The notes under the pieces are model-generated. The model was given only the letters and a program-made list of their open reading frames with translations. It did no database searches and was not told where the DNA came from. A stretch of DNA of 64,000 bases, from assembly GCA_000092065.1 (NCBI GenBank), contig CP000584.1. One strand, 5' to 3'. Shown here one piece after another: positions 26,411-30,019 of this stretch. The position numbers were made by a program, and so were the translations under genes. The stretch comes from Ostreococcus lucimarinus (taxonomy: Eukaryota). Positions within the stretch are counted from its first letter, which is position 1, and each line of letters starts with the position of its first letter.

Positions 26411-27436
26411 ATGCCGCGCACCGCCGACGACGACGCGCGCGCGCTCGCGCATCGCGACGTCAACGCCGCGACGGAGACGAACGGAGACGCGATGTGCGAC
26501 GCCGCGATGAAACCGAACGACGAAAAGGACGCGCGCGACGACGACGCGGGCGCAGACGACGACGCGGGGATTCAAAATCAAAATCTGGCTGTTGACGACG
26601 CGTCGAAGGATGACGACGCGACGACGATGATCGACGCGAAGCGCGCGCGAGAAGAAACCGAGGAAGAGGCGAAAGACGCGCGGGGAAAGGCGAAATCGCG
26701 ACACGGGAAGGAACGCGCGGCGAGAGAGATGGATTTGCAGACGCTGCCAGAGGCGTTGGGAGAGTGGAAGACGAACGCGGAGCTCGAGTTGGGGAATTTG
26801 TGGACGAGACAGCGCTTGCGATTGTTGGATTGGTTCGAGACGAAGTCGGCGATTAATAAGTGCATCGTGTCGTGTCCGGCGTCGGCGTTGAGAGAGAAGA
26901 TGCGGGCGTTGAGAGACGACGGGGTGTACGGGAGTTCGATGATTCCGTATTTGCAACTGTTGCGAGACGTCTTCGACGAGACGGATCAGTACAAGGATGA
27001 TTTGGATGAGGAATTGGATTTTAATGATTTTTTCGACGACGACGACGACGAGTCTGAAGATGACGAATCTGAAGATGACGATTCCGAAGACGACGAATCT
27101 GAAGACTCAGCTGAGGAGATTCCGGTCGTCTCTCGCGCGCCTCGCGCCGAAGCCGCCGCCGAGCCTCCTCAACGCGCGGGCGCCTCTCGATCAGCGCCGA
27201 GCACTGAAGAGATGGACGAAATCAAGATCAAGTTTAGTAAATTCACCCAATTCCTCGGTCAATACTTCTCCGAGAAGCGTCTCGAGGTGGAGAACGTCGT
27301 CGAAATAGTCGATCACGCGGCCCGAGCCGGCTTCGACGACCCCCAAGAAGTGAACAAGTTTTTAGAAGTCATGCAAAAGCAGAACAAGATCATGTACGAC
27401 CAGTCCGAGTCTCAGTGGACGGTGTACATCTTGTAG
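26411..27436 (+). CDS. Hypothetical acidic protein (DESEDDESEDD tracts) with conserved-looking C-terminal helical domain
   Basis: Clean 341-aa ORF. No confidently recognised domain (a weak DEK-C-like impression only). Confidence 0.5.
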   Translation: MPRTADDDARALAHRDVNAATETNGDAMCDAAMKPNDEKDARDDDAGADDDAGIQNQNLAVDDASKDDDATTMIDAKRAREETEEEAKDARGKAKSRHGKERAAREMDLQTLPEALGEWKTNAELELGNLWTRQRLRLLDWFETKSAINKCIVSCPASALREKMRALRDDGVYGSSMIPYLQLLRDVFDETDQYKDDLDEELDFNDFFDDDDDESEDDESEDDDSEDDESEDSAEEIPVVSRAPRAEAAAEPPQRAGASRSAPSTEEMDEIKIKFSKFTQFLGQYFSEKRLEVENVVEIVDHAARAGFDDPQEVNKFLEVMQKQNKIMYDQSESQWTVYIL

Positions 27437-27526: not shown

Positions 27527-30019
27527 ATGTCCGCCGCGACGAAAGCCGCCGAGCGCGACGCCCTGGAGCGACTCCAGCGCGACGTGCGCAAGCACGCGCG
27601 CGACGAGAGCGTCGAGATCGATGCCGCGCGCGGCTGGCGCGTTACGTTTACCGAGCGCAAAACGGGCGCGCAAGCGGGGACATTTTACAAAGAGTTTTAC
27701 GCCCCCGACGGCACGCGGTTTCGAAGCGCCAAAGAAGTCTGCGCGCACGTCCAACAGATTCGAGGGATGAAGCGTAAAGCGCTGAAAGCGAGCGCGGGAT
27801 CGGGAAAGGAGAAAGGAAGCGGGAAGGGCGATGGAAAGGCGAAACGGGGGAGGCCGAGCGCGAGCGCGGAAACCGAGAACGAGGCGGACGCGCTGGAGAA
27901 ACTGTACGCGTACGTGAAGAACACGGCTGGTCGTGATATACGTCATCACGGTTGGGGCGTGGTGTTCGTGGAGCGGAAGTCGGGGGCGCTGGCTGGGCAG
28001 GTGTATAAAGACTACTTGACGCCGTGCGGGAACAAAGTACGGTCGATGAAGGAGGTGATGGTGTACTTGGCGGGGGTGAAGTCGCCGCAATCGAAAAAGA
28101 AGATTCGTCGTGACGATGGGAGCGTGGAGGAGGAGATGGAGGCGGAACCGACCGAGGCGGAGCTTCAAGCGTTGGAAATGAAGATTACAGAAGAGCACGC
28201 GGCGGCGATTACCAGAGCCGTGCCAGCGTTACCGGCGCGCACGCAATCCGTGCAAGTGACTGGCCTAGAATTAGACGATGATATGGATGAGGATCGGTTG
28301 CTTGTTGAATTTAGCAACATCACCGGACTCGAACCGGTGTATGAAACCTTGGAAGAGCTGCGGGAAATGGTGAATAAAGAGCGCGCTCGGGCGGCGGCGA
28401 AAAACGAGGCGATGGAGTTCAATTTCAAGCCGCCAACGACGCGCGCGCCGCGACCTTCTCTCGAAGCGCTGCCAAATGGGCTGAGCTACGCCGCGAAGGA
28501 AGTCGATGAGACGAAGAAGGCGGATCAGTTGGCGTTAATTCAACGCTTTCAGAAGGAAAGCAAAATCATGAATAAGCTTGGAGATGCTTCCAAAGCCGAT
28601 TGGAGAGGTGAAGCGCGCGTACCGAAAGTTTTGGGAGACACATCGGTTCCGGATGTTGTGCGTGGGGGTACGCGCGCCGGAGCGACGCCCATGATTGCGG
28701 GAACGGCGGCGGAAATCAAACTTTTACCGAGCACGACTGAGATTGATTACGACGGCGCTGAGGACAGGCCTCCGTTCGATCCCACTGATACGAGCTCGGT
28801 GACGACGCTCAAGGCAGCCATGCATACATCAACGGCGCCGGATGAAGTGCGGTGTCGCGAAGATGAGCGCGCGAAAGTGATCGATTTGATTCAAGGGTGC
28901 TTGCGTGATCACAAACCGGGCAGTCTGTATCTCGCCGGACTGCCAGGGACGGGGAAAACACTCACGCTCAAAGACGTTCAGAGAACAACGGAAAGATGGG
29001 GTATCGTAGGTAAGACTCGACCCCGTGTAGCTTTCATCAACTGCATGTCCGTGCACAACGCCAAAGATATTTTTGGAGTCGTTTTAGATCAACTTGGCGA
29101 AAGAGTTGCATCTGAAGACCGAGCGCCAAGCGTGGGATCCATAGAATACAGCAATATCCCAGAAGTCGTGGCGTTGAGAAGAGTAGTGACTTCGATGAAC
29201 GGTGGAATGTGCATCATTCTGCTCGATGAGATGGATCAACTCGAAACACGAGATCAAGAGGTTTTGTACGAGCTGTTTGCTTTGCCCGCACTCAAGGGAT
29301 CACGATGCGTTTTAGCGGGAGTCTCCAACGCGATCAATCTCACCGATCGCGTGCTGCCTAGATTGCGCGCTCGTGGATGCGAGCCTGCACTCGTAACGTT
29401 TTCTGCGTACGATGCCAAGCAGCTCAAGGTATTGCTGAAACAGCGCCTCGCGGCGCTTCCATTCAAGGCTTTCGAGGACTCTGCGTTGGAATTGTGTTCG
29501 CGGAAAGTAGGCGCGGCGACGGGCGACATGCGAAAGGCGCTCAACGTGTGCGCCACCGCCGTCGACATATGCGTGCAAGAAGCGACGAAGATCTCAGAGG
29601 ATGGTAGCGAAGCGCCCGCCTCGGCCAAGGGCACTGTGAAGATTTCCCACATGGCGCGCGCGCTTTCAAAAACGTACGCATCGCCAGTCGTGGACTCAAT
29701 CCGGGCATTGCCGCAAATGCAACAGATGGTCCTGTGTTCGGCGATAAAACTTTTGAGCAGTACGCACGCCATGGAGACGACGTTAGGGGCTTTGCATGAT
29801 CGATACGTCATCACTTGCAAGACAGCCGGTGTCAAGGATCTATCTCAAGGTGAGTTCCACAACATGTGCAGCGCGCTCTCGGATCATTGTTTGGTTAAGA
29901 TTGGGAATGCGAGTAACGATCGATTGCGCAAGCTACGATTGCTCGCCACGCGAGATGATGTGGAGTTTTCACTCCAAGGTGTGAACTTCTTCCGCAACTT
30001 ATTAGGGATCAACGAGTAG
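27527..30019 (+). CDS. CDC6: CDC6 (Cdc6/Orc1-family AAA+ licensing ATPase) with two N-terminal methyl-CpG-binding-domain (MBD)-like modules
   Basis: AAA+ core closely matches CDC6: GLPGTGKT Walker A; ILLDEMDQLETRDQEVLYELFALP...LTDRVLPRLRAR (cf. human VLDEMDQLDSKGQDVLYTLFEWP...LTDRILPRLQAR); sensor GDMRKALNVC; C-terminal winged-helix. N-terminus has two copies of GW(R/G)V.F.ERK(T/S)GA.AG..YK.(F/Y)..P.G...RS.KEV. fitting the MBD consensus. Confidence 0.8.
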   Translation: MSAATKAAERDALERLQRDVRKHARDESVEIDAARGWRVTFTERKTGAQAGTFYKEFYAPDGTRFRSAKEVCAHVQQIRGMKRKALKASAGSGKEKGSGKGDGKAKRGRPSASAETENEADALEKLYAYVKNTAGRDIRHHGWGVVFVERKSGALAGQVYKDYLTPCGNKVRSMKEVMVYLAGVKSPQSKKKIRRDDGSVEEEMEAEPTEAELQALEMKITEEHAAAITRAVPALPARTQSVQVTGLELDDDMDEDRLLVEFSNITGLEPVYETLEELREMVNKERARAAAKNEAMEFNFKPPTTRAPRPSLEALPNGLSYAAKEVDETKKADQLALIQRFQKESKIMNKLGDASKADWRGEARVPKVLGDTSVPDVVRGGTRAGATPMIAGTAAEIKLLPSTTEIDYDGAEDRPPFDPTDTSSVTTLKAAMHTSTAPDEVRCREDERAKVIDLIQGCLRDHKPGSLYLAGLPGTGKTLTLKDVQRTTERWGIVGKTRPRVAFINCMSVHNAKDIFGVVLDQLGERVASEDRAPSVGSIEYSNIPEVVALRRVVTSMNGGMCIILLDEMDQLETRDQEVLYELFALPALKGSRCVLAGVSNAINLTDRVLPRLRARGCEPALVTFSAYDAKQLKVLLKQRLAALPFKAFEDSALELCSRKVGAATGDMRKALNVCATAVDICVQEATKISEDGSEAPASAKGTVKISHMARALSKTYASPVVDSIRALPQMQQMVLCSAIKLLSSTHAMETTLGALHDRYVITCKTAGVKDLSQGEFHNMCSALSDHCLVKIGNASNDRLRKLRLLATRDDVEFSLQGVNFFRNLLGINE

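Follow-up and report, generated by a model that had tools for sequence, protein, structure and literature searches.

Does a picoalgal CDC6, the replication-licensing ATPase, carry its own module of the methyl-CpG-binding domain (MBD) family, and what could such a module contribute to licensing? The question is raised by a locus at positions 27527–30019 of a 64,000-nt stretch of contig CP000584.1 of Ostreococcus lucimarinus (GenBank assembly GCA_000092065.1), the whole of which is referred to here as the window. The window consists of ordinary nuclear DNA from an alga of the Mamiellales type, with genes that include those for fumarase, ALG9, PIG-N and exportin-5 as well as a histidine-biosynthesis gene. 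In a first-pass annotation, made from the sequence alone, the locus was read as a CDC6 ATPase fused to two N-terminal MBD-like modules, through which origin licensing would be coupled directly to methylated DNA.

Judging from the open reading frame (ORF) and its conservation, the MBD–CDC6 fusion is genuine and not an artefact of gene modelling.

27527..30019, + strand: complete MBD-MBD-CDC6 gene, a single uninterrupted ORF of 830 amino acids (aa) plus stop; the same protein is found on six metagenomic contigs.

The frame runs for 2,490 nt without a stop from the MBDs through the AAA+ core and closes with a TAA/TAG codon at 30017–30019; the 90-nt spacer that separates it from the upstream gene's stop codon contains three in-frame stops and thus leaves no possible start before the ATG at 27527. 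The identical protein is called on the six metagenomic contigs with its neighbours unchanged, and among 14 related proteins with 59–67% identity, precomputed Pfam annotation shows both MBD and Cdc6_C in all but one (P0012), the MBD of which was detected with a local hidden Markov model (HMM). The O. tauri orthologue (P0009, 'Methyl-CpG DNA binding', 813 aa, 61% identical to the window protein) is called as a fused protein independently in the NCBI and JGI annotations. The alignment of 10 two-MBD orthologues is colinear from the first residues, with only 36–44% identity over the N-terminal 230 residues, and the gene upstream of CDC6 terminates at a stop codon of its own and is conserved as a distinct gene, including in a related contig (L005) where CDC6 carries one MBD. 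The placement of two MBD modules and the AAA+ core in the same ORF by the first-pass annotation is thus borne out by the continuity of the frame and the separateness of the upstream gene. The motifs that it quoted are all present (GLPGTGKT, IILLDEMDQ and NLTDRVLPRLRAR), as are the two modules themselves, at residues 36–75 and 142–181; its estimate of their extent, the first ~160 residues, falls short of the actual span of roughly 185.

The ATPase half of the protein, also read as CDC6 in the first pass, comprises three elements.

28847..29362, + strand: AAA+ ATPase core, residues 441–612 (Pfam AAA_22 48.4, AAA_16 47.3 and AAA 29.2 bits, all above their cut-offs).
29408..29590, + strand: Cdc6/ORC-type AAA+ lid, residues 628–688 (Pfam matches below cut-off; continuous alignment with human CDC6).
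29693..29968, + strand: Cdc6 C-terminal winged helix, residues 723–814 (Cdc6_C PF09079, 74.1 bits, E 8.9e-21, cut-off 25.1, model positions 1–95 of 96).

Both the Walker A motif GLPGTGKT (residues 471–478, 28937–28960, + strand) and the Walker B motif IILLDEMDQ (residues 563–571, 29213–29239, + strand) are invariant in 13 orthologues, and the third quoted segment corresponds to residues 604–616. The lid matches are all below the respective cut-offs (PF22606, 23.3 bits against 27, E 6e-5; PF17872, 21.8 against 23.2; PF22703, 18.3 against 27). Among sequences in the PDB, the ATPase half scores higher with CDC6 than with ORC1, the related origin recognition complex (ORC) subunit, whether the chains are human (173 vs 151 bits), fly (138.5 vs 127) or yeast (85 vs 66). 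An exhaustive search of 1.84 billion representative proteins retrieved 3,931 relatives, of which the nearest named ones are CDC6 proteins of plants, Chloropicon and animals. When a neighbour-joining tree was built (375 columns, 100 bootstraps; five ORC1 sequences, identified by their source names and BAH domain), the window protein fell in a Mamiellales clade (100%) within the green-lineage CDC6 clade (100%), apart from the ORC1 group (93%). Neither a BAH nor a PHD domain was found in the Pfam scan of the window protein, and in Chloroplastida ORC1 is reported to be a distinct gene of the BAH-PHD type, with a PHD insertion (PMC7058166). By the tree, the PDB bit scores and the lack of a BAH domain, the protein is CDC6 of an Ostreococcus-type (Mamiellales) picoalga and not ORC1.

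The N-terminal modules are, by profile match and predicted fold, both true MBD-family domains. Together with the helices and linkers that flank them, they are arranged as follows.

27533..27598, + strand: N-terminal helix of module a, residues 3–24 (AlphaFold2 helix with a predicted local distance difference test score, pLDDT, of 80–90; aligns with the helix before module b).
27629..27760, + strand: MBD-a core, residues 35–78 (Pfam; AlphaFold2 strands 38–43 and 53–58, helix 68–90; alignment to MeCP2 and AtMBD6).
27788..27874, + strand: linker 1, residues 88–116, basic and Gly/Lys/Ser-rich, predicted disordered (pLDDT <50; length and sequence vary among orthologues).
27881..27928, + strand: helix before module b, residues 119–134 (AlphaFold2; internal repeat with residues 9–24).
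27947..28078, + strand: MBD-b core, residues 141–184 (Pfam; AlphaFold2 strands 144–149 and 159–164, helix 174–183; alignments to AtMBD6, MBD1 and MBD2).
28079..28153, + strand: linker 2, about residues 185–209, predicted disordered, a basic patch (KSPQSKKKIRR) followed by an acidic run (pLDDT <50; motif scan).

In the whole protein, the Pfam MBD model (PF01429, cut-off 21) scores 58.9 bits (E 3.7e-16) over two stretches within residues 1–185, and each module clears the cut-off when scanned singly (31.8 bits for MBD-a and 35.1 bits for MBD-b), so that the resemblance to the MBD consensus pointed out in the first pass holds in a profile search. The two modules, including the helix that precedes each, form an internal repeat with 37% identity (E 9e-17), and seven positions of MBD-b (W143, R150, P166, R172, S173, E176 and Y180) are at least 90% conserved among 13 orthologues. 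An AlphaFold2 model of residues 1–232, built on an alignment of eight orthologues, predicts two compact modules with pLDDT of 80–90, each consisting of a helix, two beta-hairpin strands and a second helix. When this model was compared with the PDB using Foldseek, the top 38 matches were all MBD or TAM domains, in agreement with an MBD fold of both modules; root-mean-square deviations (rmsd) for MBD2, MBD1 and AtMBD6 range from 1.2 to 2.4 Å over 40–43 columns (1.2 Å over 40 columns with 42% identity for MBD2, 6c1u; 48% identity for AtMBD6, 7fef). Arabidopsis MBD5/MBD6 (7feo, 7fef, 7d8k) are the best matches by sequence and fold, with 43–48% identity and rmsd of 1.6–1.8 Å. The TAM domains of BAZ2A/B rank 35th or lower in Foldseek, with 25–36% identity, and stand below AtMBD6, MBD1, MBD2 and MBD3 in sequence searches; by neither approach are the modules closer to TAM than to methyl-binding MBDs. 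The Pfam matches span positions 4–54 of the 77-position model, leaving out positions 55–77, which form a C-terminal hairpin of the DFDF type. Because the match ends at model positions 52–54, the window MBDs are of a short type without this hairpin; the aligned sequence of AtMBD6 likewise ends shortly past the helix and shows no MeCP2-like DFD-type motif. AtMBD5/6 differ from the window copies in retaining the Asp-x-Tyr motif, where the latter have Tyr-x-Glu/Asp, and in not being joined to a replication protein.

Whether such domains could recognise methylated CpG depends on a handful of residues, the roles of which are known from structures of MBD–DNA complexes. In canonical MBDs, Asp121 fixes Arg111, and loss of the tyrosine hydroxyl, as in MBD3, weakens methyl selectivity. 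Using alignments to PDB chains and a local hmmalign table, we placed the residues of the window copies in MeCP2 numbering.

MeCP2 Arg111 (arginine finger): Arg44 in MBD-a, Arg150 in MBD-b.
MeCP2 Arg133 (arginine finger): Arg66 in MBD-a, Arg172 in MBD-b.
MeCP2 Ser134: Ser67 in MBD-a, Ser173 in MBD-b.
MeCP2 Glu137: Glu70 in MBD-a, Glu176 in MBD-b.
MeCP2 Asp121: Tyr54 in MBD-a, Tyr160 in MBD-b.
MeCP2 Tyr123: Glu56 in MBD-a, Asp162 in MBD-b.

Across all 21 Ostreococcus-type MBDs, which come from 13 proteins, the equivalents of Arg111, Arg133 and Ser134 do not vary, and that of Glu137 is Glu in all of them except O. tauri MBD-a, where it is Asp. With the first three invariant while the linkers diverge freely, the DNA-contact residues are under constraint. 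Of the Arg, Tyr and Asp contacts that the first-pass annotation had singled out for scrutiny, the two arginines have therefore stood up, whereas the Asp121/Tyr123 pair has not, Tyr and Glu/Asp standing in its place in either copy. On these residues, binding of CpG DNA by the window MBDs is likely and reading of methyl-CpG plausible; methylation dependence is the weakest step, since the transposed pair is the one next to the methyl groups. Among Ostreococcus-type MBDs, O. tauri MBD-a alone (P0009, residues 29–73) keeps the canonical Asp-Lys-Tyr, while O. tauri MBD-b has Trp-Lys-Glu. This distribution points to changes that arose independently or else, in the remaining species, to gene conversion between the two copies.

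This lineage is not the only one with the fusion. In the search of representatives, the query N-terminus was matched by the Ostreococcus cluster only, and all Ostreococcus-type orthologues found carry the MBD in one or two copies. Beyond them, MBDs were detected on CDC6 orthologues with Pfam and with a local HMM built with streptophyte and Micromonas-like seeds. A Micromonas-like protein of 2,055 aa (sharing 60% identity with the partial CDC6 of M. pusilla) contains up to five MBD-like repeats, the one nearest the ATPase being fully canonical (R/D/Y/R/S), and a 1,097-aa marine protein is a CDC6 with the same canonical MBD. In streptophytes, CDC6 of Chara braunii (GBG82036.1) bears an MBD that is full-length and canonical (33 bits with MeCP2), and the domain is also present on CDC6 of Marchantia polymorpha, M. 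paleacea, Riccia fluitans, Physcomitrium patens and Sphagnum balticum. For the CDC6 proteins listed from Ceratodon, Selaginella, ferns, conifers, angiosperms and Chloropicon, annotation shows no MBD. The fusion reappears over some billion years of evolution in the green lineage, which makes a chance event in a single genome an unlikely source of it.

These database MBD–CDC6 proteins (O. tauri P0009, Chara GBG82036.1, Marchantia BBN02235.1 and Physcomitrium CDC6 homolog B isoform X2) share the domain order of the window protein. They differ in the form of the domain, which in streptophytes is a single full-length MBD with a C-terminal DFDW hairpin and no preceding helix, whereas in Mamiellales there are one to five short repeats, each with a preceding helix. 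They also differ in the contact residues, which are canonical in Chara, transposed in Ostreococcus and degenerate in bryophytes. Green plants may have had the fusion ancestrally and lost it several times, or it may have arisen at least twice; a second origin is possible because the Mamiellales MBDs are short and have a leading helix, while those of streptophytes are long and have the DFDW hairpin.

Several further observations concern the variability of the fusion. MBD copy number is 1–2 among close relatives and reaches up to five in Micromonas-like proteins. In a single-MBD clade (L005 487–2694; P0012, P0014 and P0015) with the same synteny and 60% identity, the domain corresponds to module b, and the Asp121/Tyr123 positions are occupied by Tyr-x-Gln or Tyr-x-Glu. 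The reference CDC6 models of Micromonas hold only the ATPase/winged-helix half (P0020 from M. pusilla CCMP1545, 437 aa, 'partial'; P0361 from M. commoda RCC299, 500 aa) and, compared with metagenomic ORFs of the 60%-identical relative, which reach 2,055 aa with MBD repeats, may be truncated at the 5' end. The Marchantia locus MARPO_0042s0007 has two annotated products (P0189/P0190), one of 702 aa with the MBD and one of 496 aa (P0190) with another N-terminus and without it; inclusion of the MBD may be regulated there by alternative start or splicing.

What might the MBDs do on a licensing factor? In Mamiellales, dense CpG methylation is reported to be restricted to the linkers between nucleosomes and to depend on DNMT5 for its maintenance (PMC5082852, citing Huff and Zilberman 2014, and PMC9246332). 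Against this background, we propose that the tandem MBDs tether CDC6 to CpG DNA, probably methylated linker DNA, a reading to which we would assign a probability of roughly one half. The AAA+, lid and winged-helix half, as a member of its family, would bind ATP, join ORC on DNA and help load MCM2-7. Each MBD, to judge from residue conservation, would engage a CpG step with its pair of conserved arginine fingers, and the tandem arrangement together with the basic linkers would give avidity, tethering CDC6 to CpG-rich DNA. Such a tether would concentrate CDC6 on methylated, nucleosome-free linkers, where ORC–CDC6 could encircle DNA and load MCM. A dependence on methylation, and an effect on where or when licensing occurs, are speculative parts of this scheme. 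It is supported by the retention of the canonical R/D/Y/R/S set in Micromonas-like proteins and Chara and of the architecture over deep time.

The composition of the window limits what the tether could achieve. With 10,257 CpGs in 64,000 nt (one per 6.2 bp, observed/expected ratio 1.67; the ratio for TpA is 0.50), 280 of them within the CDC6 gene, CpG is so dense that an MBD could at most tilt binding towards the part of the genome that is methylated linker DNA. A role of the domain as a sequence-specific selector of origins was considered and rejected, with a CpG every ~6 bp. The coupling of licensing to methylated DNA envisaged in the first pass thus retains the MBD family membership and the arginine fingers in its favour, with the loss of Asp121/Tyr123 against it and without the ability to pick particular origins.

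A number of observations weigh against a methylation-directed tether. The CpG ratio shows no trace of CpG decay despite the heavy methylation reported for the lineage. In both window copies, the Asp121/Tyr123 pair is effectively transposed to Tyr-x-Glu/Asp, and the C-terminal hairpin of the Pfam MBD model is missing from the sequence of both matches. The CDC6 MBDs of bryophytes keep Asp121 and have lost Tyr123 and mostly both arginines; that the domain is kept in these plants all the same indicates that it can be retained for a reason other than mCpG reading. Finally, vascular plants methylate CpG, and yet those listed have no MBD on CDC6.

Part of the same evidence fits a second explanation, namely that the MBDs are tethers to DNA or chromatin that, whether or not 5-methylcytosine is present, bind the DNA backbone as well as CpG or other steps, akin to the basic disordered regions of metazoan ORC/CDC6 or to the TAM domains of BAZ2A/B. 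A need of ORC for chromatin tethering by a disordered region has been reported (PMC11077064), basic linkers lie beside both modules, the Asp121/Tyr123 pair is kept in neither window copy, the bryophyte domains retain the fold signature without Arg111, Arg133 or Tyr123, and BAZ2A/B TAM domains are among the fold and sequence matches. Methylation-independent binding leaves unaccounted for, however, the strict conservation of the arginine fingers and Ser134, and the near-strict conservation of Glu137, in Ostreococcus, as well as the full canonical set held by O. tauri MBD-a, the Micromonas-like proteins and Chara; moreover, the best structure and sequence matches are the methyl-binding AtMBD6, MBD2 and MBD1, with TAM in 35th place or lower. 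We consider this explanation somewhat unlikely, although a serious contender.

A third possibility is that the window modules have ceased to bind DNA and become protein-interaction or regulatory modules, which might recruit a chromatin or cell-cycle partner or control CDC6 stability; among animal MBDs, MBD3 and MBD5/6 are examples that work chiefly by protein contact. Each is coupled to an extra conserved helix, unlike canonical MBDs, and the bryophyte copies are degenerate. In addition, a motif scan of residues 1–440 found three S/T-P sites, one of them in linker 2, with no full cyclin-dependent kinase (CDK) consensus and no KEN box, and with so few of the usual CDC6 signals in this region regulation may sit in other elements. 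The strict conservation of the DNA-contacting arginines and Ser134 is nevertheless hard to explain without DNA binding, and we regard the loss of DNA binding as improbable.

The two remaining alternatives concern the identity of the protein and the gene model. CDC6 and ORC1 are close paralogues, human ORC1 scoring only 22 bits below human CDC6, so that the window protein might be an ORC1 subunit or a single ORC1/CDC6 protein with both jobs; this is rejected as very improbable in view of its grouping with plant and Chloropicon CDC6 apart from the five ORC1 sequences, its CDC6-named nearest relatives, the lack of BAH and PHD, and the reported existence of a separate, PHD-containing ORC1 in Chloroplastida (PMC7058166). 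That the MBD region belongs to another gene lying upstream, or is missing from the translation product that contains the ATPase, is rejected as scarcely credible: the MBD-less Marchantia product and the ATPase-only Micromonas models could be cited for it, against which stand the in-frame stops of the spacer, the conserved separate upstream gene, the doubly called O. tauri fusion and an ORF that is continuous in every orthologue despite ~40% N-terminal identity.

A more elaborate variant of methylation-dependent tethering can be imagined, in which the MBDs read methylation as a mark of replication history: fully methylated linker CpG would be bound and hemimethylated CpG would not, so that licensing could occur only after maintenance by DNMT5. 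The coupling would be ancestral in the green lineage and lost in vascular plants, which would account for the presence of MBD–CDC6 in Mamiellales, Chara and bryophytes. We think this a long shot. If true, it would amount to a methylation-based once-per-cycle control in a eukaryote, with a logic like that of Dam/SeqA at oriC of Escherichia coli, where the methylation state governs access of the initiator. The likeness is an analogy: SeqA is unrelated and blocks initiation on hemimethylated GATC, whereas in the window protein it is the licensing factor itself that bears the putative methyl reader.

Between the MBDs and the ATPase lie two further conserved elements.

28274..28408, + strand: acidic box and helical hairpin, residues 250–294, DDDMDEDRL..F..ITG.EP.Y....ELR (conserved columns; pLDDT 76–84 in the full-length model).
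28595..28717, + strand: Gly/Arg-rich, near-invariant motif, residues 357–397, ADWRG..RVP..LG.TS....RGGTR.GA.P.I.GT.AEI (pLDDT <50, not modelled as folded).

The full-length AlphaFold2 model (13-sequence alignment) has a mean pLDDT of 51.5, with the AAA+ part mostly below 50, and was used for N-terminal elements only. Invariant columns are D250, M253–E255, L258, F262, T266–G267, E269–P270, Y272 and L278–R279 in the first element and A357–G361, R364–P366, L369–G370, T372–S373, R379–R383 and G385–I397 in the second. Neither element has a family match in the Pfam scan. When region 233–440 was compared with the Micromonas-like protein P0019, weak colinear counterparts of both elements were found; in the comparison with Marchantia, the start of the AAA+ module aligns and neither conserved element has a counterpart.

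The gene next to CDC6 (26411–27436, + strand), 90 bp upstream on the same strand, encodes an acidic protein of 341 aa that holds its position beside CDC6 in the related contigs L001–L005. It has no match in a PDB sequence search, and its C-terminus (residues 275–330) reaches 26 bits with the Pfam model WH_MCM3_C, an MCM3-like winged helix, just under the cut-off of 27. In yeast the MCM3 winged helix contacts ORC–Cdc6, and the pairing of this gene with CDC6 may therefore be no coincidence. The power spectrum of CG positions in the window shows a single sharp peak near a 190-bp period, 11.5 times the mean of 211 frequencies (periods 140–260). Several separate 4-kb segments feed this peak, AA, TT and CA are raised as well, and the spectrum was taken with no shuffling control; it could reflect a nucleosome-scale periodicity of the sequence or chance.

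How does the window protein compare with known licensing factors? With canonical CDC6 (human, yeast, Arabidopsis CDC6a/b) it shares the AAA+ core with Walker A and B motifs, a putative lid, the winged helix and the clade in the tree, and its ATPase half is ~40% identical to CDC6 of Arabidopsis and Amborella. In model organisms, the N-terminal extension of CDC6 is a disordered regulatory tail. In contrast to this short segment with its CDK sites and degrons, the N-terminus of the window protein spans 430 residues with two MBDs and two conserved elements, and contains neither a full CDK consensus nor a KEN box. The arrangement is reminiscent of ORC1, in which a chromatin-mark reader (BAH in animals and fungi, BAH-PHD in plants) is likewise N-terminal to an ATPase of the Orc1/Cdc6 clade; the ORC1 readers, however, bind histone marks, whereas the module of the window protein belongs to a DNA-methylation reader family and is carried by CDC6.

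What is new, then, is a CDC6 with a built-in module of the DNA-methylation-reader type. The domain names as such are already in databases, where UniRef lists the Chara and Marchantia CDC6 as 'MBD domain-containing protein'. In the literature covered (open-access papers and preprints), no paper discussing an MBD on CDC6 was found, consistent with the impression in the first pass that the fusion had not been described, and the main text of a survey of ORC/CDC6 evolution (PMC7058166) contains neither 'MBD' nor 'methyl'.

Known licensing factors read chromatin through the histone-mark readers of ORC1 or through disordered basic regions. If the MBDs of CDC6 do read methylation, they would provide a direct and different route from the methylome to helicase loading. 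O. tauri offers gene targeting and natural synchrony, and Marchantia and Physcomitrium are genetic models. Since the hosts of the fusion include such tractable organisms and a lineage with a reported linker-restricted CpG methylome, an effect of methylation on where and when MCM is loaded would be directly testable.

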